IMG/VR virus record: IMGVR_UViG_2526164598_000015
Origin: a virus
Lineage: Duplodnaviria > Heunggongvirae > Uroviricota > Caudoviricetes
DNA: 39,465 nt
Direction: 5' to 3' (one strand)
Program-made: the position numbers and the translations under genes
The notes under the pieces: model-generated
Told to the model about the DNA's origin: nothing
The model's database searches: none
The model's input: only the letters and a program-made list of their open reading frames with translations
Shown: one piece after another, positions 3,891 to 33,893 of the stretch
How the letters are laid out: every line of letters starts with the position of its first letter
How positions within the stretch are numbered: position 1 is the stretch's first letter

Positions 3891-4013
3891 TTTGTTTTAA
3901 CCTCATGACAGATTTAAGGATGAACAAATCCCTGCCATTGCTGGCATATAAGAATCAAATCTGATGTATTCATTAAGCTGAATGTCGTATTGTGGCAGTT
4001 ATTTTATTACTGC

Positions 4014-4247
4014 TCACCATGACTCTGCTTTTACAGGTAAACCATCACGACCAAGGAAGACTTTAATCATGGTTTCCTTAATACAGTGTTGTGTGGAAAA
4101 ATCACGAATATAGAGCCGTTGTTTTTTAATGTTGTTTACCGAAGCAATATATGTTCTTCCTTTATGAATAACATAATCACCGGGAGTCACGCACTGACGA
4201 GGAATCTCATCAGTTCCGAAGTGATGAGCAATCATAATTATCTCCAT
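4014..4247 (-). CDS. Hypothetical small protein (77 aa)
   Basis: ORF only; weak RBS; no recognisable motif. Confidence 0.35.
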
Positions 4248-4801
4248 TTTTACAAATGAACTTTGTTGATGCGGTGCCTGGTGCCTCCAGGTGACGTTAA
4301 CCAGTTAACAATTAACGCCGGATACAGAGAACCCACCCATAACACTGTTTTTGGTTTTAACTGTTCCGCGTGCGCTCAGCCGCATTCACCGCATCACAAA
4401 ACTCACTTTAAAAAGGGCGGCAGACCAGTCACGGAGTAAAACTGATACCGCCAAACGTCACCAGAAAATTGATAACAGAGGGCGTTGCAGCGGGGTTGTC
4501 ACTTAAGCGTATGGTCAACCTGACAACCCGGTGTCCTCAACGGGGAAGGAATAACCCCGCCATACTTACCGCCGCGCCATTTCGCGGAGTGCCACAACCG
4601 GAAGCGCACGGTCGACGAAAATTTAACGACAGGCTATCTATGAACCAGCTACCTCGCCGTGCGCTTTCGCGTTATGGTCTGACTTTTCAGGGAAATATCC
4701 TTTCAGTAAACTGTCAGTGCCGGATGCTCACCCGTGTCCGGCGCACGCACTCCACCTCACCCGTGGAGAACTCCTTAATCACCAACCCTCAGGAGGGTGA
4801 A

Positions 4802-5077
4802 ATGTCGACTGAAAATGATGAAATCATTAACTCCCTGATACGCCAGATTAATAATTTTGATAAAGCATTGCAGCATGCTGCGGCGCGTAGTGATATAACT
4901 CTTTTAGCAATTTCATTTCTTGCATCTGTAATGGATAAAAATGAAGTCGTACGACAGAGTCTTGTTGATTATATCGACTCGCTTCAACCAGGCACTTTCA
5001 ATCATGAGAGCTTCAATCATGAGAAAGAGCATGTTAAATCTGTAATTAATTCTCTTGTTTTGAATCAAAAGAATTAA
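4802..5077 (+). CDS. Hypothetical protein (91 aa), AT-rich, predicted helical
   Basis: ATG at 4802 preceded by AGGAGGG RBS; upstream in-frame extension of track ORF 4469..5077 judged non-coding; 3' end overlaps convergent gene by 32 bp. Confidence 0.5.
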   Translation: MSTENDEIINSLIRQINNFDKALQHAAARSDITLLAISFLASVMDKNEVVRQSLVDYIDSLQPGTFNHESFNHEKEHVKSVINSLVLNQKN

Positions 5078-5375
5078 TGCTTTTTGTTGCAAGGTAATTT
5101 TCAAGGGGTTCTATTCGAATCCCTTTCTTTTTCATTAACAAGCCAAACCCCTTATCAATGATGTCCATTAGATCCAGGAAGTATTTTTCATGTAAATCCA
5201 GGTTATCAGAGAGCTGCTTCTCTTCGTACAGACCGATAAAGGCACGACGCACGTTACCGGATATAGTATCGATGGTTTCTTTTTCTACGGTACTCAGGTC
5301 AAGAGTCGCCAGTTGGGAACGAACTATATTCGCTGCCATTTCCTGGAATTGCATTGGTAAATCTTTAAATTCCAT
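5046..5375 (-). CDS. Hypothetical protein (109 aa)
   Basis: ATG at 5375 with ACGAGG RBS; 22 bp downstream of the 72-aa gene, same strand (operon-like). Confidence 0.55.
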   Translation of the reverse strand: MEFKDLPMQFQEMAANIVRSQLATLDLSTVEKETIDTISGNVRRAFIGLYEEKQLSDNLDLHEKYFLDLMDIIDKGFGLLMKKKGIRIEPLENYLATKSINSFDSKQEN

Positions 5376-5397: not shown

Positions 5398-5616
5398 TTA
5401 ACGCGGGCATGTAATCATTCTGGCAATGCTTAATGCCGCTGCTTTTTCCAGCCTGGTGATATCCTGCTCCAGAGCGGACAGATTTTCAGCCTGCTTAGCC
5501 TTGGCTTCATTGGCCCATTTCAGATCCTGCGCTGCATTAATTTTCTGGCGCATCCACTCATAAAGTTCATCATCGGTATAGTCTGGCGCGATGATGACGG
5601 GTTCTCGTTTCTGCAT
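5398..5616 (-). CDS. Hypothetical protein (72 aa), coiled-coil-like; first gene of early-left operon
   Basis: ORF downstream of the putative oL/pL region; no arginine-rich N-like motif. Confidence 0.5.
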   Translation of the reverse strand: MQKREPVIIAPDYTDDELYEWMRQKINAAQDLKWANEAKAKQAENLSALEQDITRLEKAAALSIARMITCPR

Positions 5617-23893: not shown

Positions 23894-25865
23894 TTCCTGG
23901 TTCAGGATGCAGGCTGGTCACCAGAGTGACGCGGATATTTATATTTATGACGAGATTGGTTTCTGGGGTGTTACAGCGAAGCAGTTTATCAGTGATCTGA
24001 ATGCACTGGGCGATATCACCCACATTAATCTCCATATCAATTCACCGGGTGGCGATGTCTTTGAAGGCATCGCCATTTTTAATGCGCTGAAAACACATGG
24101 TGCGTCCATTACCGTTTATGTCGACGGTGTGGCGGCGTCAATGGCGTCGGTCATTGCGATGGTGGGAAACCCGGTCATTATGCCGGAAAACACCTTCATG
24201 ATGATTCATAAACCATTTGGCTTTACGGGCGGTGATGCGGAGGACATGCGCACCTATGCCGACCTGCTCGATAAGGTTGAGGCGGTTCTGTTACTCGCTT
24301 ATGCACAGAAAACCGGGAAAACCACCGATGAAATTGCTGCCATGCTGGCGGATGAGACCTGGATGTCCGGTGCCGAATGTCTGGCACATGGATTTGCTGA
24401 TCAGGTGACACCAGCCGTTAAGGCAATGGCATGTATTCAGTCAAAACGTACAGAGGAATTTAAAAAGATGCCGGAATCCATTCGAAACATGATTACTCCG
24501 CCACGCAACAGTGCTCCACGCGTACAGGATGATGAACCTGCAGCCTCCCGGACGCCAGTGCAGGCCGCAGCACCCGTGGTGGATGAAAACAGTATCCGTG
24601 CGCAGGTACTGGCAGAGCAAAAAGCGCGTGTAAACGGTATTAATGATCTGTTTGCCATGTTTGGCGGGCGTTATCAGACGCTGCAGGCTCAGTGTCTTGC
24701 CGATCCTGAATGTTCGCTGGAGCAGGCCCGCGAAAAGCTGTTGAACGAGATGGGGCGCGAGTCCACGCCATCCAATAAAAATACCCCGGCTCATATTTAT
24801 GCCGGTAACGGTAATTTTGTGGGGGACGGGATCCGCCAGGCGCTGATGGCGCGTGCCGGATTTGAAAAAACCGAACGTGATAATGTCTACAACGGGATGA
24901 CCCTGCGTGAATATGCCCGTATGTCACTGACTGAACGGGGTATTGGGGTTTCCGGTTATAACCCGATGCAGATGGTCGGTGCGGCGTTCACACACAGTAC
25001 GTCTGACTTCGGTAATATTCTGCTGGATGTTGCGAACAAAGCCATTCTGCAGGGCTGGGAAGATGCTCCTGAAACCTATGAACAGTGGACGCGGAAAGGT
25101 CAGTTGTCTGATTTTAAAATTGCCCATCGTGTGGGTATGGGGGGCTTCAGTGCTCTGCGTCAGGTGCGTGAAGGGGCGGAATATAAATACGTCACCACCG
25201 GAGATAAACAGGCCACTATTGCACTGGCGACCTATGGCGAGCTGTTCAGTATCACCCGTCAGGCCATTATCAATGATGATCTGAATATGCTGACCGATGT
25301 CCCGATGAAACTGGGCCGTGCGGCGAAATCCACTATTGCCGATCTGGTTTATGCCATTCTGACGTCTAACCCGAAAATCTCCACAGATAATGTAAGTCTG
25401 TTCGATAAAGCGAAACATGCAAACGTACTGGAGAGCGCTGCAATGGACGTGGCATCGCTGGATAAAGCCCGCCAGTTGATGCGCGTTCAGAAAGAGGGGG
25501 AGCGTCATCTGAATATTCGTCCTGCGTTCGTACTGGTACCGACGGCGATGGAGTCTGTTGCTAACCAGGTCATTCGCTCCTCAAGTGTCAAGGGGGCTGA
25601 CATTAACGCCGGTATTATTAACCCGGTGAAAGATTTTGCGACCGTTATTGCAGAGCCTCGTCTTGATGATAACAGCCAGACCACCTTCTACCTGGCTGCG
25701 TCCAAAGGCTCCGATACGATTGAAGTGGCTTATCTCAACGGTGTGGATACGCCATATATTGATCAGATGGAGGGCTTCAGTGTGGATGGCGTGACAACGA
25801 AAGTGCGTATTGACGCCGGTGTCGCGCCAGTTGATCACCGCGGTCTGGTGAAATGTACGGCGTAA
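23838..25865 (+). CDS. Prohead protease (ClpP/S49-like) fused to HK97-fold major capsid protein
   Basis: GTG 23838 with AAGGAGG RBS, overlapping portal 3' end by 56 nt; N-terminal serine-protease region (..HINLHINSPGGDV..ASMASVIAM..); long C-terminal capsid-like domain. Confidence 0.8.
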   Translation: MPQRNDRSRSTPTTSPKNNSWFRMQAGHQSDADIYIYDEIGFWGVTAKQFISDLNALGDITHINLHINSPGGDVFEGIAIFNALKTHGASITVYVDGVAASMASVIAMVGNPVIMPENTFMMIHKPFGFTGGDAEDMRTYADLLDKVEAVLLLAYAQKTGKTTDEIAAMLADETWMSGAECLAHGFADQVTPAVKAMACIQSKRTEEFKKMPESIRNMITPPRNSAPRVQDDEPAASRTPVQAAAPVVDENSIRAQVLAEQKARVNGINDLFAMFGGRYQTLQAQCLADPECSLEQAREKLLNEMGRESTPSNKNTPAHIYAGNGNFVGDGIRQALMARAGFEKTERDNVYNGMTLREYARMSLTERGIGVSGYNPMQMVGAAFTHSTSDFGNILLDVANKAILQGWEDAPETYEQWTRKGQLSDFKIAHRVGMGGFSALRQVREGAEYKYVTTGDKQATIALATYGELFSITRQAIINDDLNMLTDVPMKLGRAAKSTIADLVYAILTSNPKISTDNVSLFDKAKHANVLESAAMDVASLDKARQLMRVQKEGERHLNIRPAFVLVPTAMESVANQVIRSSSVKGADINAGIINPVKDFATVIAEPRLDDNSQTTFYLAASKGSDTIEVAYLNGVDTPYIDQMEGFSVDGVTTKVRIDAGVAPVDHRGLVKCTA

Positions 25866-25887
25866 ACGTCGCAGACAACAACTCTGA

Positions 25888-25908
25888 TGGCCCGTAAGGG
25901 CTTTTTTT
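25888..25908 (+). terminator. Weak intrinsic terminator after capsid gene
   Basis: GCCC-GTAA-GGGC hairpin followed by TTTTTTT. Confidence 0.45.
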
Positions 25909-25951
25909 GTACCTGAAATCAGCCTCTGAACGGGGCTGTGCGGAGACAGTT

Positions 25952-26275
25952 ATGGCAAAGAATTTTGTAGAAGAAGGAAAAACGGTGGCGATTGTTGCCA
26001 GTGCAGCCATCAGCAGCGGAGATCTGGTGCAGGTGGGTGATGTTTTTGCGGTGGCGCTGACCGATATTCCACAGGGTGAAACAGGCGACGGCATGACCGA
26101 AGGTGTGTTTATCCTGCCTAAACTGAAAACGGATGACATGAAAACGGGTAAGAAGGTTTATCTGAAGTCCGGAAAAGTTCAGCTGACTAACAGCGGCTCT
26201 GATCCGCTGGTCGGGGTTGTCTGGGCAGATGCCGGAACCAGTGCAGAAGAAGTGCCGGTAAAACTCAATGTCTGA
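25952..26275 (+). CDS. Head-associated small protein (decoration/completion, uncertain)
   Basis: 107 aa; GGAG RBS; position immediately after capsid gene. Confidence 0.5.
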   Translation: MAKNFVEEGKTVAIVASAAISSGDLVQVGDVFAVALTDIPQGETGDGMTEGVFILPKLKTDDMKTGKKVYLKSGKVQLTNSGSDPLVGVVWADAGTSAEEVPVKLNV

Positions 26276-26543
26276 TCCCTTTTCCCGGCTGGCAGCGCGT
26301 ATGGATGCGATCACGGTCAGAAAGATGGGAAAGACAGCCTCGATTAATGATGTCGATATGGCTGTGATCCCGGGCGAAACACTGGCAGAGCTGAATGCTC
26401 TGTCCGGACCTGCGGTCTCTCTGGTGGTGTTTTCTTCGGGATACCGCCCACGGCGCGGGGATCGCGTTGTTTATGACGGACAACAATGGACGGTCACACG
26501 GCATGAACGTTTTAACGGTAAGCCAATGATCTTTATTGAGTAA
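26268..26543 (+). CDS. Putative head-tail adaptor / head completion protein
   Basis: 91 aa; overlaps previous stop; position between head and tail modules. Confidence 0.5.
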   Translation: MSDPFSRLAARMDAITVRKMGKTASINDVDMAVIPGETLAELNALSGPAVSLVVFSSGYRPRRGDRVVYDGQQWTVTRHERFNGKPMIFIE

Positions 26544-26554
26544 AGAGGTGTGGG

Positions 26555-27133
26555 ATGAAGGGGCTTGAGAATGCCATCCGCAATCTGAACAGCCTTGATA
26601 CCCGTATGGTGCCACAGGCCAGCGCATGGGCGATAAACCGTGTGGCACAGAAAGCGGTCTCGGTTGCCACCCGGCAGGTTGCCGGGAATACCGTTGCGGG
26701 AGATAACCAGGTGAAAGGGATCCCCCTGAAACTGGTACGTCAGCGTGTCCGGGTGTTTAAAGCCAGTCCGTCAGGAAAAATGACGGCCAGGATCCGCGTT
26801 AACCGGGGCAATCTGCCCGCCATTAAGCTGGGGACAGCCCGGGTCAGACTGGCCCGGCGTGGTGGAAAACTGCAGTACCGTGGCAGTGTGCTGAAGGTGG
26901 GTAAATATCTTTTCCGGGATGCGTTTATTCAGCAACTGGCGAATGGTCGCTGGCATGTGATGCGGCGTATTGATGGCAAAAATCGTTACCCCATTGATGT
27001 GGTGAAAATCCCGCTTTCCGGACCGCTGACACAGGCATTTGAAGATGCCCGCGACCGCATCATTGCTGCGGAAATGCCGAAACAGCTGGGGTATGCACTG
27101 AAACAACAACTGAGGTTATGGCTGACCCGATGA
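26555..27133 (+). CDS. Z: Minor tail protein Z-like
   Basis: 192 aa (same length as lambda Z); position immediately upstream of U and V. Confidence 0.7.
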   Translation: MKGLENAIRNLNSLDTRMVPQASAWAINRVAQKAVSVATRQVAGNTVAGDNQVKGIPLKLVRQRVRVFKASPSGKMTARIRVNRGNLPAIKLGTARVRLARRGGKLQYRGSVLKVGKYLFRDAFIQQLANGRWHVMRRIDGKNRYPIDVVKIPLSGPLTQAFEDARDRIIAAEMPKQLGYALKQQLRLWLTR

Positions 27134-27531
27134 ACCGACATACACAAATCCGCCAGGCCGTACTGGCACGCCTTCGGGAACAGTGTGGAGACAGCGCCAC
27201 GTTTTTTGACGGGCTTCCGGCATTTATTGATGCGCAGGAACTGCCTGCCGTGGCGGTGTGGCTGAGTGATGCTCAGTACACCGGAAAAATGACGGATGAA
27301 GATGACTGGCAGGCTGTTCTGCATATTGCTGTCTTCATCCGGGCACAGGCACCGGATTCAGAGCTGGATATGTGGATGGAGAGCACCATTTTCCCGGCCC
27401 TGAATGATATACCGGCACTTTCCGGACTCATCGACACCCTGATCCCTCTCGGTTTTAACTATCAACGTGATAATGAGATGGCCACCTGGGCGATGGCGGA
27501 AATCACGTACCAGATCACGTACACGAATTAA
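27118..27531 (+). CDS. U: Tail terminator protein U
   Basis: Strong similarity to lambda U as recalled (..ATFFDG.PA..D...PAVAV.L..A.YTG...D.D.WQA.LHI.VF..AQ.PDSELD.WMES.I.P...DIPALS.LI..). Confidence 0.85.
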   Translation: MADPMNRHTQIRQAVLARLREQCGDSATFFDGLPAFIDAQELPAVAVWLSDAQYTGKMTDEDDWQAVLHIAVFIRAQAPDSELDMWMESTIFPALNDIPALSGLIDTLIPLGFNYQRDNEMATWAMAEITYQITYTN

Positions 27532-27542
27532 AGGAGGTGGCA

Positions 27543-28286
27543 ATGACCACACCAAATCCACTGGCAAAAACGAAAGGTGCGGGAACGACGTTCTGGATGT
27601 ACACCGGCAAGGGCGATGCGTTTGCGAACCCTTTATCGGACACTGACTGGCTGCGTCTTGCGATGGTGAAGGATCTGCAACCTGGCGAAATGACCGCTGA
27701 TGCAGAAGATGACTCTTATCTCGATGATGAAGATGCAGACTGGAAAACGACAACCCAGGGGCAGAAATCCGTCGGTGATACTTCGGCGACGCTGGCCTGG
27801 CGTCCGGGTGACAGCGGGCAGAAAAAACTGGTTCAGTTGTTCGACTCCGGTGAAGTCTGCGCGTTTCGTATCAAATATCCCAACGGCACTGTTGATGTTT
27901 TCCGTGGCTGGCTGAGCTCACTGGGTAAAACCATTGCCTCAAAAGACGTGATGACCCGCACAGTGAAAATCAGCGGTGTGGGGCGTCCGTATCTGGCAGA
28001 GGAAGGCACTGAAACAGTGAGCGTTACCGGGCTGACGGTGGCACCGGCATCTGCCAGTGTAAAAGTGGGAGCAACCACCACGCTGACCTTTACAGTAAAA
28101 CCTGACGGAGCCAGTGACAAAGCGATCAGTGTGCATTCGACAGATCCACAGACTGCCACGGTGACCCTGAACGGGCTTGTGGCCACGGTGAAAGGCGTGA
28201 AGCAGGGCAGTGTCAGCATTGTGGGCATGACTTCTGACGGCGATTTTGTGGCAGTGGCTGCGGTGGCTGTCAGCGCCGCAGGTTAA
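27543..28286 (+). CDS. V: Major tail protein V with C-terminal Ig-like domain
   Basis: ATG 27543 with AAGGAGG RBS; near-identity to lambda V core (..KGAGTT.W.Y.G.GD..ANPLSD.DW.RLA.VKDL.PGE.TA...DDSYLDDEDADW..T.QGQKS.GDTS.TLAW.PG..). Confidence 0.9.
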   Translation: MTTPNPLAKTKGAGTTFWMYTGKGDAFANPLSDTDWLRLAMVKDLQPGEMTADAEDDSYLDDEDADWKTTTQGQKSVGDTSATLAWRPGDSGQKKLVQLFDSGEVCAFRIKYPNGTVDVFRGWLSSLGKTIASKDVMTRTVKISGVGRPYLAEEGTETVSVTGLTVAPASASVKVGATTTLTFTVKPDGASDKAISVHSTDPQTATVTLNGLVATVKGVKQGSVSIVGMTSDGDFVAVAAVAVSAAG

Positions 28287-28306
28287 CAGGACGATACTCA
28301 TCATTT

Positions 28307-28330
28307 GCCCCGGTTATCCGGGGCTTTTTT
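28307..28330 (+). terminator. Intrinsic terminator/attenuator between V and G
   Basis: GCCCCGG-TTAT-CCGGGGC hairpin followed by TTTTTT. Confidence 0.5.
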
Positions 28331-28343
28331 GCAGGTGGAGAAC

Positions 28344-28733
28344 ATGATGTTTCTGAAACAGGGCACGTTTAATTATGAAAAGCAGTCCGTGGTGCTCAGT
28401 GAGCTGTCCGGGCTGCAGAGAATTGAATATCTGGCGTTTGTTCAGCAGCGAACGGCAAAGTTTGATGCCGAAGAGGGAGAACTGCCGGAGGCTGAACGAC
28501 AGATTGCTTTTCTGCGGATGGGGATGGATATCAATGCCTGGCTGGTTTCCCGCTCACTGTGGAATGCGGAACAGTCTCAGGATGTTGAGACGCTTTGCGC
28601 ATCCGTTATTACAACATGGTCGTATGATGCCCTGGGAGCGGGGGCGGAGATGGTTCTGTCGCTGAGCGGTATGGGAGCCATTGAGAATGCCGGGGATTTG
28701 GAGCATGAGGTGCTGACGCCGGAAAAGTCCTGA
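28344..28733 (+). CDS. G: Tail assembly chaperone G
   Basis: Starts MMFLKQGTF.. like lambda G (MFLKTESF..); GGTGGAG RBS; ends just after the slippery site. Confidence 0.8.
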   Translation: MMFLKQGTFNYEKQSVVLSELSGLQRIEYLAFVQQRTAKFDAEEGELPEAERQIAFLRMGMDINAWLVSRSLWNAEQSQDVETLCASVITTWSYDALGAGAEMVLSLSGMGAIENAGDLEHEVLTPEKS

Positions 28734-29071
28734 CGCGGGAAATGCAGTTTGTCATGCGGCTTGCCCGGGAGTTCCGGCGGGCAGACTGGCGGCGGATGCT
28801 GTCGGAAATGTCGGCCACTGAGCTTGGTGAGTGGGGCGATTATTTCCGGATGCAGAGCTTCAGTGATGTGTGGATGGATGCGCAGTTTGCCTCGCTGAAG
28901 GCATTGATCGTGAGAATGGTGTCCGGTAGCAGTGATGCTGCGGTGGCTGATTTCAGCCTTTTACCGGAAGAGAACGGGATACCGGAGCGAACGGACGAAG
29001 AACTGATGCATCTTGGGGAAGGTATTTCCGGAGGTGTGCGTTATGGACCAGATAGCCAACCTGGTCATTGA
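28722..29071 (+). CDS. T: T-frame portion of tail assembly chaperone, expressed as G-T fusion by -1 ribosomal frameshift
   Basis: Open -1 frame from 28709; slippery G GAA AAG at 28721-28727 in the last codons of G (lambda uses G GGA AAG at the equivalent place). Confidence 0.7.
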
Positions 29072-32000
29072 TTTGGGGATTGATGCGGCAGAGTTTAAAA
29101 ATGAAATTCCCCGTATCAAAAACCTTCTGAATGGTGCAGCCAGCGATGCAGAACGGTCTTCTGCCCGTATGCAGCGTTTTATGGAGCGTCAGACTCAGGC
29201 CGCCCGGCAGACAATGCAGGCGGCTTCTTCGGCTGCAACAGCCGCATCCGTCCATGCGCAGACGGTGGAGAAGAGCGCACAGGCTCATGAACGCATGGCC
29301 CGCGAGGTGGAGCAAACCCGCCAGCGTATGGAGGCACTGAGCCAGAAAATGCGCGAGGAACAGGCGCAGGCCATGGCTCTGGCGGAGGCTCAGGATAAAG
29401 CGGCTGCCGCGTTTTATCGTCAGATTGACAGTGTGAAACAGGCCAGTGCGGGGCTGCAGGAATTACAGCGTATTCAGCAGCAGATCCGACAGGCCAGAAA
29501 CAGTGGCGGGATTGGTCAGCAGGATTATCTGGCGCTGATTTCTGAGGTTACGGCGAAAACCCGTGTTCTTACGCAGGCTGAGGCAGAGGCTACCCGACAG
29601 AAAGTGGCGTTTATCCGTCAGCTTAAAGAGCAGGCAACCCGCCAGAATCTTTCCTCTTCTGAGTTGCTTCGTGCTAAGGCTGCCCAGCTGGGGGTAAGCA
29701 GTGCTGCAGAAGTGTATATCCGCAAAATGGAGCAGGCAGGAAAAGCCACGCATTCGCTGGGTCTGAAAAGTGCAGCGGCCCGCCAGGAGATAGGCGTTCT
29801 GATAGGTGAACTGGCTCGCGGCAATTTAGGTGCGCTGAGGGGATCCGGGATAACGCTGGCTAACCGTGCCGGATGGATAGACACACTGATGTCACCGAAA
29901 GGCATGATGCTGGGCGGGGTTATTGGCGGTATTGCCGCGGCCGTCTATGGTCTGGGTAAAGCCTGGTATGATGGTCAGAAGGAGGGGGAAGAATTTAACC
30001 GCCAGTTGTCGCTGACGGGGCATTATGCCGGAGTCACTGCCGGGCAGCTGTGGACGCTCAGTCGTGCTATTTCCGGGAATGGTATTACGCAACATGCTGC
30101 AGCCGGTGCGCTGGCTCAGGTGGTGGGGAGTGGTGCATTTCGTGGAAACGATATCGGTATGGTGGCGAGAGCTGCCGCACAGATGGAGCGATCGGTTGGC
30201 CAGTCGGTCGGCGATACCATAAATCAGTTTAAGCGGCTGAAGGATGATCCTGTAAATGCCGCGAAGGCTCTGGACAATGAGCTGCATTTTCTTACTGCCA
30301 CTCAGCTTGAGCAGATACGCGTCCTTGGGGAACAGGGGCGGTCCAGTGATGCGGCACGGATAGCCATGTCTGCACTGGCAGAGGAAACCGGTCGGCGTAC
30401 TGCGGATATTGATAATAACCTCAATGCGCTGGGCAGTACGCTGAAGTATCTGTCTGATTTATGGAGTCGTTTCTGGGATGCGGCCATGAATATTGGTCGT
30501 GAAGACTCGCTGGATGAACAGATTTCCGCTTTACAGGAGAAAGTGTCGCGGGCGAAAAGACTCCCCTGGACGGCATCATCTTCTCAGGTTGAGTACGATC
30601 AGCAGCGTCTTAACGAGCTTCAGGAGAAAAAACGCCAGAAGGATTTGCAGGATGCAAAAGAGCAGGCAGAGCGGAATTATCAGGAGCAACAGAAACGCCG
30701 TAATGCTGAAAATGCTGCACTGAACCGGATGAATGAAACGGAAGCAGCACGACATCAGCGTGAAATTGCGCGTATTAATGCCATGCAGTACGCCGATCAG
30801 GCTGTCAGGGATGCGGCGATACAACGTGAAAATGAACGTTACGAGAAAGCCCTGGCATCCGGTAAGAAAAAAACACGCGAATCCCGTAATGATGAGGCCA
30901 CCCGGTTATTGCTGCAGTACAGTCAGCAACAGGCACAGGTGGAAGGACAGATTGCTGCTGCCAGACAGTCAGCAGGCATTGCCACGGAAAGGATGACAGA
31001 AGCGCATAAACAGCTTCTGGCTCTGCAGCAGCGCATCAGCGACCTGGACGGGAAAAAACTGACGGCAGATGAAAAGAGTGTGCTGGCCCGTAAAGATGAA
31101 CTGATTCAGGCACTGACGCTGCTGGATGTAAAACAGCAGGAGCTTCAGAAACAGACGGCACTCAACGAGCTGAAGAAAAAAACAATTCAACTGACCAGTC
31201 AACTGGCTGAAGAAGAGCGCGCTCAGCGTCAGCAACATGACCTGGATATCGCCACGGTGGGTATGGGTGATCAGCAGCGGCAGCGATATCAGGTACAACT
31301 GAGTCTTCGCCAGAAATACCAGCAACAGCTGGAGCAGTTGAGGCGGGATAGTGAGCAGAAAGGAACATATAACACGGATGACTACAGAAAGGCCGAGCAG
31401 GCGCTGACGGAGAGCCTGAACCGACAACTGAATGAGAATCGCCGTTACTGGCAACAGCTTGAAGTTGTGCAGGGTAACTGGAAAAACGGAGTCCTGCGTG
31501 CATTTCAGGATTTTACCGTGGATGCAGATAATACGGCAGGAACAGCAGAACAGGTGTTCTCGTCAGCCTTCAGCAACATGGGAAATGGCCTGGCAACTTT
31601 TGTCACTACCGGCAAACTCAATTTCAAATCCTTCACCTCTTCTGTGCTGTCAGATATGGCGAAAATCCTGGCGCAGGCAACCATGATGAAATCGATAAAA
31701 GGGATTGGCAGTGTACTGGGATTTGATCTCAGCAGCCTTTCCCTGAATGCCAATGGGGGGATTTATCAGTCTGCTGATTTGAGTCGTTACAGTGGCACGG
31801 TGGTTAACCGTCCGACGTTTTTTGCTTTTGCAAAAGGCGCGGGTGTGATGGGGGAAGCGGGACCTGAAGCCATTCTGCCACTGCGTCGTGGTGCTGACGG
31901 TAAGCTGGGGGTTGTGGCGGATATTGGTGGTTCAGGTATGGCGATGTTTGCCCCGCAGTACAACATCGAGATCAATAACGATGGCACGAACGGGCAGATA

Positions 32001-32108
32001 GGTCCGGCTGCCCTGAAGGTGGTTTATGACCTTGGGAAAAAAGCGGCAGCGGACTTTATGCAACAGCAGGCCCGTGATGGTGGTCGGTTAAGTGGAGCAT
32101 ATCGGTAA
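29043..32108 (+). CDS. H: Tail tape measure protein H
   Basis: About 1020 aa, coiled-coil rich; C-terminus ..NNDGTNGQIGPAALKVVYDLGKKAAADFMQQQARDGGRLSGAYR matches lambda H end as recalled. Confidence 0.9.
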   Translation: MDQIANLVIDLGIDAAEFKNEIPRIKNLLNGAASDAERSSARMQRFMERQTQAARQTMQAASSAATAASVHAQTVEKSAQAHERMAREVEQTRQRMEALSQKMREEQAQAMALAEAQDKAAAAFYRQIDSVKQASAGLQELQRIQQQIRQARNSGGIGQQDYLALISEVTAKTRVLTQAEAEATRQKVAFIRQLKEQATRQNLSSSELLRAKAAQLGVSSAAEVYIRKMEQAGKATHSLGLKSAAARQEIGVLIGELARGNLGALRGSGITLANRAGWIDTLMSPKGMMLGGVIGGIAAAVYGLGKAWYDGQKEGEEFNRQLSLTGHYAGVTAGQLWTLSRAISGNGITQHAAAGALAQVVGSGAFRGNDIGMVARAAAQMERSVGQSVGDTINQFKRLKDDPVNAAKALDNELHFLTATQLEQIRVLGEQGRSSDAARIAMSALAEETGRRTADIDNNLNALGSTLKYLSDLWSRFWDAAMNIGREDSLDEQISALQEKVSRAKRLPWTASSSQVEYDQQRLNELQEKKRQKDLQDAKEQAERNYQEQQKRRNAENAALNRMNETEAARHQREIARINAMQYADQAVRDAAIQRENERYEKALASGKKKTRESRNDEATRLLLQYSQQQAQVEGQIAAARQSAGIATERMTEAHKQLLALQQRISDLDGKKLTADEKSVLARKDELIQALTLLDVKQQELQKQTALNELKKKTIQLTSQLAEEERAQRQQHDLDIATVGMGDQQRQRYQVQLSLRQKYQQQLEQLRRDSEQKGTYNTDDYRKAEQALTESLNRQLNENRRYWQQLEVVQGNWKNGVLRAFQDFTVDADNTAGTAEQVFSSAFSNMGNGLATFVTTGKLNFKSFTSSVLSDMAKILAQATMMKSIKGIGSVLGFDLSSLSLNANGGIYQSADLSRYSGTVVNRPTFFAFAKGAGVMGEAGPEAILPLRRGADGKLGVVADIGGSGMAMFAPQYNIEINNDGTNGQIGPAALKVVYDLGKKAAADFMQQQARDGGRLSGAYR

Positions 32109-32437
32109 TGGAGACGTTTCACTGGAAAGTGCGCCCGGATATGAATGTGGTATCAGAGCCGAAAGTGGTGACAGTGAAGCTGGGCGATGGTTATGAACAG
32201 CGTCGTGCGGCGGGACTGAATAACCAGTTGTCGATTTACAGCGTGACGATACGTGTTCGTAAATGTGAACACCCATCTTTAAAAGCCTTTCTGGAACGGC
32301 ACGGTGGCGTCCGCGCATTTCAGTGGACGCCACCTTATGACTGGAAGCCGATCAGGGTGGTTTGTCGTAAATGGTCGGCAAGCGTGGGGGCGTTGTGGGT
32401 AACCATAACGGCAGATTTTGAACAGGTCGTGGCATAG
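32108..32437 (+). CDS. M: Minor tail protein M
   Basis: 109 aa, METFHWKVRPDMNVVS... close to lambda M (MKTFRWKVKPGMDVAS...). Confidence 0.9.
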   Translation: METFHWKVRPDMNVVSEPKVVTVKLGDGYEQRRAAGLNNQLSIYSVTIRVRKCEHPSLKAFLERHGGVRAFQWTPPYDWKPIRVVCRKWSASVGALWVTITADFEQVVA

Positions 32438-32446
32438 GAGTCTCTG

Positions 32447-33145
32447 ATGCAGGATATTCCACAGGAAACACATCATGAGACGACACGCCTCACTCAGTCA
32501 GCTCAGGTGGTGCTCTGGGAAATCGATCTGACAGTGGTCGGTGGAGAACGTTATTTTTTCTGTAATGAGCAGAACGATAAAGGTGAGCCGGTCACCTGGC
32601 AGGGGCGACAGTATCAGGCGTATCCCATTCAGGGGACGGGATTTGAACTGAACGGCAAAGGCAGTGCTGCCCGTCCGACACTGACGGTTTCTAACCTGCA
32701 CGGCATGGTCACCGGGATGGCGGAAGACCTGCAGAGTCTGGTCGGAGGAACGGTGGTCCGGCGTAAGGTTTACGCCCGTTTTCTGGATGCGGTGAACTTC
32801 GTCAACGGAAATAGCGATGCCGATCCGGAGCAGGAGGTGATCAGCCGCTGGCGCATCGAGCAGTGCAGCGAACTGAGCGCGGTGAGCGCCTCTTTTGTAC
32901 TGTCCACGCCGACGGAAACGGATGGCGCTGTTTTTCCGGGGCGCATCATGCTGGCCAACACCTGTACCTGGACCTATCGCGGTGATGAGTGCGGTTATAG
33001 CGGTCCGGCTGTCGCGGATGAATATGACCAGCCGACGTCCGATATCACGAAAGATAAATGCAGTAAATGCCTGAGTGGCTGTAAGTTTCGCAATAATGTC
33101 GGCAACTTTGGCGGCTTCCTTTCCATTAACAAACTTTCGCAGTAA
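32447..33145 (+). CDS. L: Minor tail protein L
   Basis: 232 aa; near-identical to lambda L over most of its length as recalled. Confidence 0.9.
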   Translation: MQDIPQETHHETTRLTQSAQVVLWEIDLTVVGGERYFFCNEQNDKGEPVTWQGRQYQAYPIQGTGFELNGKGSAARPTLTVSNLHGMVTGMAEDLQSLVGGTVVRRKVYARFLDAVNFVNGNSDADPEQEVISRWRIEQCSELSAVSASFVLSTPTETDGAVFPGRIMLANTCTWTYRGDECGYSGPAVADEYDQPTSDITKDKCSKCLSGCKFRNNVGNFGGFLSINKLSQ

Positions 33146-33149
33146 TCCC

Positions 33150-33893
33150 ATGACAGAGACAGAATCAGCGATTCTGGCGCACGCCCGGCGATGTGCGCCA
33201 GCGGAGTCGTGCGGCTTCGTGGTGAGAACGCCGGAGGGGGAAAGATATTTTCCCTGCGTGAATATCTCCGGTGAGCCGGAGGCGTATTTCCGGATGTCGC
33301 CGGAGGACTGGCTGCAGGCAGAAATGCAGGGTGAGATTGTGGCGCTGGTCCACAGTCACCCCGGTGGTCTGCCCTGGCTGAGTGAGGCCGATCGGCGGCT
33401 GCAGGTGCAGAGTGATTTGCCGTGGTGGCTGGTCTGCCGGGGGACGATTTACAAGTTCCGCTGTGTGCCACATCTTACCGGGCGGCGCTTTGAGCACGGG
33501 GTGACGGACTGTTACACGCTGTTCCGGGATGCTTACCATCTGGCGGGGATTGAGATGCCGGATTTTCATCGCGGGGATGACTGGTGGCATCACGGTCAGA
33601 ATCTCTATCTGGATAATCTGGAGGCCACAGGGCTGTATCAGGTGCCGTTGTCAGCGGCGCAGCCGGGCGATGTGCTGCTGTGCTGTTTTGGTTCATCGGT
33701 GCCGAATCATGCCGCCATTTACTGCGGTGACGGCGAGCTGTTGCACCATATTCCTGAACAACTGAGCAAACGAGAGAGGTACACAGACAAATGGCAGCGA
33801 CGCACACACTCCCTCTGGCGTCACCAGGCATGGCACGCATCTGCCTTTACGGGGATTTGCAACGATTTGGCCGCCGCATCGACCTTCGTGTGA
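33150..33893 (+). CDS. K: Tail assembly protein K (JAB/MPN plus NlpC/P60-like domains)
   Basis: Starts MTETESAILAHARRCAPAESCGFVV... as lambda K; HSHP metal-site motif. Confidence 0.9.
   Translation: MTETESAILAHARRCAPAESCGFVVRTPEGERYFPCVNISGEPEAYFRMSPEDWLQAEMQGEIVALVHSHPGGLPWLSEADRRLQVQSDLPWWLVCRGTIYKFRCVPHLTGRRFEHGVTDCYTLFRDAYHLAGIEMPDFHRGDDWWHHGQNLYLDNLEATGLYQVPLSAAQPGDVLLCCFGSSVPNHAAIYCGDGELLHHIPEQLSKRERYTDKWQRRTHSLWRHQAWHASAFTGICNDLAAASTFV

Follow-up and report, generated by a model that had tools for sequence, protein, structure and literature searches.

Results

Gene content and homology of the locus

The stretch of DNA analyzed here, referred to below as the window, comprises the whole 39,465 nucleotides of IMG/VR virus record IMGVR_UViG_2526164598_000015. 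In its early-left region, a leftward operon runs in the order ydfC, a 109-aa gene, a non-coding block, kil, and an exonuclease gene. The following features frame the block:

4014..4235, minus strand: kil, 73 aa, a Rac-type FtsZ inhibitor, with ribosome-binding site (RBS) GGAG at 4242-4245
4255..4787, minus strand: conserved non-coding block, assigned by homology to Qin as the "long untranslated region containing dicF" known from early-left operons of the dicBF type
4802..5077, plus strand: 91-aa gene of low GC adjoining the block, with an AGGAGG RBS
5103-5125, plus strand: terminator-like site beyond the 4802 gene
5398..5616, minus strand: ydfC, upstream in the leftward operon; homologues are annotated ydfC (PHROG 1744)

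The original prediction, made from the letters of the window, singled out a non-coding gap of approximately 550 bp at this place, and the distance from the kil start at 4235 to the plus-strand start at 4802 is indeed 566 bp, without a conserved open reading frame (ORF). The kil product matched PHROG 294 (7.9e-33) and NCBIfam NF008465 (140 bits, cut-off 92), and its homologue is annotated kil. While the mechanical ORF begins at ATG 4247 and is 77 aa long, we placed the start at ATG 4235 on the basis of the GGAG RBS at 4242-4245, the 73-aa length of the family, and the annotation of the homologue. The gap had also been called GC-rich, which holds relative to its AT-rich neighbors (39% in kil and 35% in the 4802 gene) but not relative to the window as a whole (52% versus 51%); positions 4467-4801 reach 55%.

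No convincing protein had been seen in the gap, and the homologues bear this out. For each of the five ORFs of at least 30 aa, several of 10 divergent homologues have a stop or frameshift instead of an intact protein-coding gene, and the Arg-rich in-frame extension of the 4802 gene, judged not protein-like, is interrupted in 7 of the 10. ORFs of 31–58 aa are nonetheless present in the stretch, and the PGAP annotation of a near-identical genome lengthens the 4802 gene at its N terminus to 145 aa (L001:3441-3878, approximately window 4640-5077) and places a "DicB, partial" pseudogene (L001:3063-3146, equal to window 4262-4345) over the kil leader. Still, it is very improbable that any unannotated small protein is encoded here. 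In every frame, stops or frameshifting indels occur in several of the 10 homologues (75–98% identity), variation falls mostly in hairpin apices, and as compensatory pairs, and not in third codon positions, and the ORFs of the stretch have no Pfam match. Both PGAP frames are broken in other homologues, and consequently these calls are probably annotation artefacts.

When the reverse complement of 4240-4810 was aligned to the ydfC–dicB intergenic DNA of Qin, a cryptic prophage of E. coli K-12, window positions 4255-4787 were 97.4% identical over 533 nt, and dicF (b1574) is annotated at the equivalent place in Qin. We conclude with high confidence that the non-coding stretch constitutes the untranslated dicF segment within the leftward early operon (minus strand) of this lambdoid prophage, from which DicF would be released by stepwise processing. 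The region had been taken as unexplained, but an untranslated dicF region of the dicBF operon has already been described in the literature (PMC5069750, PMC10448788). As a long-known dicF locus, the stretch is in itself an ordinary finding that is already known.

The resemblance to the Qin dicBF operon extends to ydfC upstream, to the location of the block, with the immunity region on one side and the exonuclease gene on the other, and to the helices that accompany the cleavage sites published for RNase III and RNase E. There are also differences. Qin has dicB–ydfD downstream of the block, whereas the prophage studied here has the Rac-type kil; the 109-aa (minus strand) and 91-aa (plus strand) genes between ydfC and the block are extra; and the repressor is a LexA/CI-type protein of 212 aa instead of DicA. 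Since the gene downstream of the block is kil and not dicB, the locus is a mosaic and no copy of Qin. In annotated homologues, the operon reads repressor, ydfA, ydfB, ydfC, (variable genes), non-coding block, dicB or kil, ydfD, and exonuclease.

The block is widespread in E. coli, with matches in 4,730 of 5,426 complete genomes, a span of at least 80% of the query in 3,509 of those, and a median of 2 and a maximum of 10 places per genome. In the RefSeq records of near-identical homologues, dicF itself carries no annotation. A DicF-pattern scan of genome contigs returned 8 loci, all of them in Escherichia, Shigella, or Salmonella or on probably mis-binned MAG contigs. Near-identical E. coli-type dicF blocks were seen on MAG contigs labeled Veillonella parvula, Collinsella sp., and soil "Proteobacteria bacterium" (L008, L009, and L010), and another in "Actinobacillus phage vB_Apl-pPE4" (H43). 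Such labels probably reflect binning or host-assignment errors, not true host range.

The DicF small RNA

DicF is a small RNA that blocks cell division and is among the oldest known sRNAs. An Rfam scan, which the original prediction had proposed as a check, identified it at once in the stretch, together with its terminator:

4415..4467, minus strand: DicF sRNA, 53 nt (Rfam RF00039), with an RNase E-generated 5' end expected at 4467
4410..4452, minus strand: DicF terminator hairpin, read from the sequence, with arms 4442-4452 and 4416-4428 and U tract 4410-4414

The RF00039 match scored 74.2 bits (gathering cut-off 48; E 1e-14) and covered model positions 1–52 of 52 at window 4415-4466 on the minus strand. 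Compared with K-12 dicF (b1574), 52 of the 53 nucleotides are identical, including all of nucleotides 1–42 and with them the single-stranded targeting segment at the 5' end. The sole difference, C to G at position 43, falls in an unpaired bulge of the Rfam consensus and is absent from 60 other downstream variants among the matches listed. The terminator, GGCGGUAUCAG...CUGGUCUGCCGCC followed by CUUUUU, was missed by a simple terminator scan because its stem is bulged. The context is as expected for DicF, with ydfC (5398-5616) upstream and the division-inhibitor gene kil (4014-4235) downstream on the same strand. The identity and strand of DicF, the homology to Qin, and the helix conservation described below are direct observations of this analysis. 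A non-coding RNA had been among the original guesses, and one is present, although the functional RNA lies on the minus strand and not on the strand of the 4802 gene.

Among the other Rfam families screened at E ≤ 10 over 3900-5200, only DicF and a weak STnc100 match were credible. Matches to snoRNA and CRISPR-DR families were set aside as chance; they lie outside the stretch or across coding sequence. Elsewhere in the window, a sok antitoxin RNA match (RF01794; 11806-11980, plus strand; 108.2 bits versus a cut-off of 59) implies a hok/sok-type toxin–antitoxin locus in the prophage. Three tandem tRNA genes were also seen on the plus strand at 16223-16295, 16306-16379, and 16396-16469 (Rfam tRNA 72.5, 56, and 70.1 bits, respectively). 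Such tRNA clusters occur upstream of late genes in lambdoid and Stx-type phages.

The stretch holds several GC-rich hairpins, and GCCGGATGC resembles what we take to be the first bases of the REP consensus, which fits the earlier proposal of REP-like units. The chance that the stretch consists of REP/BIME-like palindromic units or other repeated extragenic elements is nonetheless negligible. The REP consensus has no match within 3 mismatches in the whole window, nowhere else in the window is any part of the stretch repeated, and the block is bound to one position in prophage early operons. REP/BIME elements were excluded on the lack of a consensus match and of dispersed copies in the window.

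Much of how DicF is made is known from K-12. There it lacks its own promoter and is cut from the polycistronic dicBF transcript, with RNase III making the 5' end of a 190-nt species and RNase E being required for the 53-nt form (PMC10448788, PMC5069750). Its 3' end arises by Rho-independent termination or, in read-through RNA, by RNase III, which yields a 72-nt form (PMC5069750, PMC10448788). Two K-12 transcripts have been reported, ydfABC-dicF of 1,146 nt and ydfABC-dicFB-ydfD of 1,608 nt, and DicF represses ftsZ in an Hfq-dependent manner (PMC10448788, PMC5069750). Most K-12 transcripts terminate at dicF (PMC10448788).

A conserved four-way junction upstream of DicF

The stretch had been described as highly structured, and its folding is far better than that of shuffled sequences on both strands. 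The minus-strand RNA of 553 nt folds at −217.3 kcal/mol (dinucleotide shuffles, −184.9 ± 6.7; z −4.85; 0 of 100 shuffles as good), compared with −188.6 kcal/mol (z −4.69) for the same 553 nt on the plus strand, so that the minus-strand fold is better by 29 kcal/mol. Upstream of DicF, the following structures were delineated:

4688..4787, minus strand: upstream sub-module, in some homologues only, with hairpin GCCGGA/UCCGGC (4719-4742) and direct repeat CACGGGUGAG (4727-4736 and 4756-4765)
4679..4717, minus strand: hairpin CUGAC...GUCAG
4593..4676, minus strand: long imperfect helix with arms 4654-4676 and 4593-4615 and a variable apex (inverted repeat I3); putative RNase III substrate
4604, minus strand: equivalent of the 5' end of the 190-nt pre-DicF (RNase III cut), mapped by homology
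4484..4598, minus strand: module B, a four-way junction of about 115 nt, from the MFE fold and covariation
4591-4598/4484-4491, minus strand: P0, the closing helix of module B (GUUGUGGC/GCUGCAAC)
4572-4587, 4541-4559, and 4521-4529/4493-4501, minus strand: hairpins H1, H2, and H3 of module B
4560-4570 with 4505-4514, minus strand: module B pseudoknot, by complementarity of linker GGUAAGUAUGG with H3 loop CCAUACGCUU

All of the stem-loops that had been picked out by eye are present: GGGGTTGTCA (4492-4501) with TGACAACCCG (4521-4530), complementary at 9 of 10 positions; CGGGG (4541-4545) with CCCCG (4555-4559); CCGCG (4572-4576) with CGCGG (4583-4587); and GCCGGA (4719-4724) with TCCGGC (4737-4742). 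The repeated motif CTCACCCGTG likewise occurs in two copies, at 4727-4736 and 4756-4765. Three of these stem-loops correspond to H1, H2, and H3.

Homology at the upstream end breaks off at different points in different prophages (window 4787, 4747, and 4687). The stem of the long helix is retained in nearly all homologues, while its apex is replaced. To obtain position 4604, a span of 190 nt was measured off from the DicF 3' end in K-12 and its start carried over to the window by means of the alignment. This position would lie inside the 3' arm of the long helix, which fits a double-strand-specific nuclease. The 5' strand of P0 also contributes to this 3' arm, and P0 may thus form only after the helix has been cut or melted. 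Directly after P0 comes an AU-rich single strand, CUCUGUUAUCAA and then UUUCUGG, which contains the DicF 5' end at 4467.

P0, H1, H2, and H3 make up both the MFE and the centroid fold of the 190-nt RNA, and the pseudoknot helix was found independently by RNAalifold. Covariation across homologues, which had been suggested together with folding as a check, revealed conserved paired structure in 74 distinct module B sequences drawn from public phage contigs and genomes. In this set, 95.2% of cells pair, versus 33–57% when the 3' partners are slid by 1–3 columns; 8 of 33 pairs are changed on both sides; and the covariation score was reached by 0 of 500 column shuffles. These values are to be read knowing that the sequences are related and that the reference itself supplied the structure, and the invariance of the H3 loop is by construction, as this loop was the search pattern. 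H2 persists through unlike stems (CGGGG/CCCCG, CUGGGG/CUCCAG, CCAGGUG/CACCUG, and CUGGG/CCCAG), and one-sided substitutions retain pairing as G–U on the minus strand only.

A covariance model of module B scored 151.8 bits at 4484-4598, its single copy in the window. Module B matched no Rfam family, either in the window (E ≤ 10) or in 13 homologous loci (E ≤ 0.01). A tRNA or tRNA-like gene was rejected, with ARAGORN negative over 4200-4850, and the cloverleaf shape of module B is a resemblance only.

The adjoining plus-strand gene

The product of the 4802 gene had no family match in Pfam, PHROG, and NCBIfam searches. At the same position in another prophage lies a homologue of 28% identity, which argues that the gene is real and fast-evolving. 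Its 3' end overlaps the 109-aa gene (5046-5375, minus strand) by 32 nt. In other prophages, different small opposite-strand genes occupy the same slot, one of them 28% identical and others unrelated, and the slot looks like a moron or accessory-gene insertion hotspot.

A long regulated leader for this gene had been one of the proposals for the gap as a whole, but Qin has the block at 97% identity without such a gene. In a narrower form, approximately 4680-4801 would supply the 4802 gene, on the plus strand, with a promoter and a regulated 5' leader, possibly in addition to the DicF function. The homology block stops about 15 nt from the 4802 ATG, just past the RBS, which suggests that the gene brings no promoter of its own, and most variant prophages have some small opposite-strand gene at exactly this boundary. 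The Shine–Dalgarno sequence lies within a short self-complementary stretch (CCCTCAGGAGGG), and a weak promoter-like site, TTTTCA-17-TAAACT, occurs on the plus strand at 4684-4712. However, that site matches at 8 of 12 positions and was the best found with relaxed rules, a standard sigma-70 scan giving no plus-strand promoter in 4260-4800. Where other prophages bear an opposite-strand gene, the sequence at that end is unrelated, K-12 Qin retains the sequence at 97% identity without any such gene, and the one-sided changes that keep G–U pairs favor the minus strand. Internal promoters were not detected in the K-12 region, in a study whose scope did not include the opposite strand (PMC10448788). 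Taken with these points, a plus-strand leader is rather unlikely.

A structured leader ahead of kil

Between the DicF terminator and kil lies a further structured element:

4249..4414, minus strand: structured kil leader, 166 nt (inverted repeat I1), a distant STnc100 relative

Its 28-nt outer helix (4387-4414/4249-4276) encloses hairpins at 4295-4317 and 4277-4291, and the leader ends a few bases short of the kil RBS (GGAG 4242-4245). STnc100 (RF02076) aligned here with 37.7 bits, below the gathering cut-off of 47 (E 2.6e-6), and scores of 31–44 bits were obtained at every one of 13 homologous loci. The leader aligns to model positions 26–154 and has in common with STnc100 its closing helix (..GGUGAAU...CACC..) as well as the ACCNGGAGGCACCNGGCACC hairpin. 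In the helix arms, it shows compensatory differences from the canonical copies, which were available for comparison in two of the homologous loci. Canonical copies end in GCCCCTCTCCGGAGGGGCTTTT, whereas the kil/dicB leader has no such hairpin and runs into the RBS. Lacking its own terminator, the leader is a distant relative of STnc100 and not a member of the family. The two also differ in position: STnc100/PasD lies in the late region downstream of Q/stx, and the kil leader in the early-left operon. Published accounts to date place STnc100 and PasD in the late region, close to Q, stx, and esterase genes (10.64898/2026.05.13.724894, PMC12370729).

In different prophages, dicB, kil, or a third gene (MLNVAIENQ...) follows this leader, as do kilR in Rac-SA53 and terB/tciA in P7 (L014:1534-1723 and L017:1501-1616). 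Ahead of this leader and kilR, Rac-SA53 carries a degenerate DicF (L014:1490-1544; 41.1 bits, below the cut-off).

Module B with other downstream segments

A scan of IMG/VR with the H3-loop pattern returned at least 120 loci, and the matches listed contained 61 distinct 110-mers downstream of module B. These fall into at least 10 unrelated types of single-stranded segment plus terminator, including canonical DicF, a short DicF with another terminator, a Stx2c-phage type, and a P1/P7 type, with further types in other enterobacterial prophages. Module B is better conserved than the sRNAs downstream among the matches listed. A simple RNAduplex comparison with shuffled seeds, made for ftsZ targeting by the alternative seeds, did not recover even the known DicF–ftsZ interaction and was given no weight.

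The covariance model scored 92–97 bits in P1 and P7, where the segment just past promoter Pban is annotated "dicF-like region". Outside the window, the copies of module B in the P1/P7 ban leader and in Stx2c phages lie at L016:1486-1606, L017:77-200, and L015:1497-1619. As in the locus studied here, the P1/P7 ban leader belongs to an early operon under repressor control, and its module B is directly followed by a single-stranded segment and then by an intrinsic terminator. It differs in that the seed and terminator are unrelated to DicF and that tRNA genes and ban lie downstream. Module B begins about 35 nt after Pban, which leaves no upstream RNase III helix there. At E ≤ 1, the model had no match in the HK022 early region (24000-36000), Rac-SA53, Shigella phage 75/02, or phiSTEC1589. 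In phiSTEC1589-Stx1c, about 27 nt stand in place of module B and the DicF seed, with a terminator-like remnant (L012:1710-1737; DicF 35.6 bits).

The position of module B, always just before an intrinsic terminator beyond which transcription must continue for kil/dicB, exo, or the P1 tRNA–ban operon to be expressed, brings to mind the HK022 put RNA, which is likewise a structured nascent RNA of a lambdoid early operon upstream of terminators. Module B could then be a cis-acting RNA for read-through past the DicF terminator instead of a processing scaffold. Its stronger conservation than that of the sRNA downstream would fit this, as would the lack of any annotated N-type antiterminator gene from the repressor gene to ydfA in the homologous loci that were inspected. 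We consider this improbable, and the likeness to put a functional analogy only. Nothing indicates a modified RNA polymerase, some phages that bear the block also encode N (e.g., phiSTEC1589), most K-12 transcripts do end at dicF, and the module B model found nothing in the HK022 early region itself. The put RNA is also built differently, its two stems forming a V of about 70 nt that has neither a pseudoknot nor a four-way junction (PMC9378689), whereas module B is a 115-nt junction.

Discussion

The RNase III, RNase E, and terminator pathway established for K-12 Qin may be expected to operate at this prophage as well, given the 97% identity of the two blocks. The operon transcript would pass through the region, and RNase III would cut the long helix (approximately 23–27 nt per arm; 4654-4676/4593-4615) to give a 190-nt pre-DicF starting at about 4604. 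The freed 5' segment GUUGUGGC could then pair with GCUGCAAC and close the pseudoknotted four-way junction of module B (4484-4598). RNase E would cut the AU-rich single strand just 3' of the junction and so produce the 53-nt DicF (4467-4415), the 3' end of which would be set by its own intrinsic terminator. In read-through RNA, RNase III would cut the 28-nt outer helix of the next module, the kil leader (4249-4414). DicF would act in trans, with Hfq, on ftsZ and other mRNAs.

Within this scheme, we infer three elements ourselves: the helix switch that closes P0, the guidance of RNase E by module B, and the use of the kil leader as a second RNase III site. For the last of these, the 3' end of the 72-nt DicF species (PMC5069750) would map to approximately 4396 when transferred to the window. 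This position falls inside the outer helix of the leader, which makes the helix a likely second RNase III site, and cleavage there would also trim the leader of the kil mRNA.

Since conservation is stronger in the scaffold than in the sRNAs downstream of it, module B may have a role beyond DicF. A tentative possibility is that it is an autonomous pseudoknotted four-way-junction domain, absent from Rfam, that serves temperate phages as a portable biogenesis platform for sRNAs with interchangeable seeds. Such a platform would position RNase E or tune terminator passage, and new seeds acquired by recombination would still be processed correctly. Both the idea of a scaffold whose seeds can be exchanged and that of an STnc100-like leader common to different division-inhibitor genes are leads and not established results. 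To our knowledge, the long flanks of dicF have received little attention so far. Faubladier and Bouche (1994) reportedly may already describe conservation of the flanks, in which case part of the module B picture may be known, while the sharing of module B with the P1/P7 ban leader and with Stx2c phages may be new.

What had looked like an empty gap of 566 bp is a known regulatory RNA locus, and the apparent annotation anomaly is thereby removed. Automated annotation of the homologues leaves the dicF locus blank or overlays it with a spurious CDS. The prophage carries two division inhibitors, the DicF RNA and Kil. Beyond this, the comparative data suggest that the flanks of dicF are two separately mobile structured modules, one being a scaffold common to the P1/P7 ban leader that occurs with many alternative seeds, and the other a leader resembling STnc100. 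If this two-module picture is confirmed, the exchange of seeds among phage sRNAs would become directly testable.
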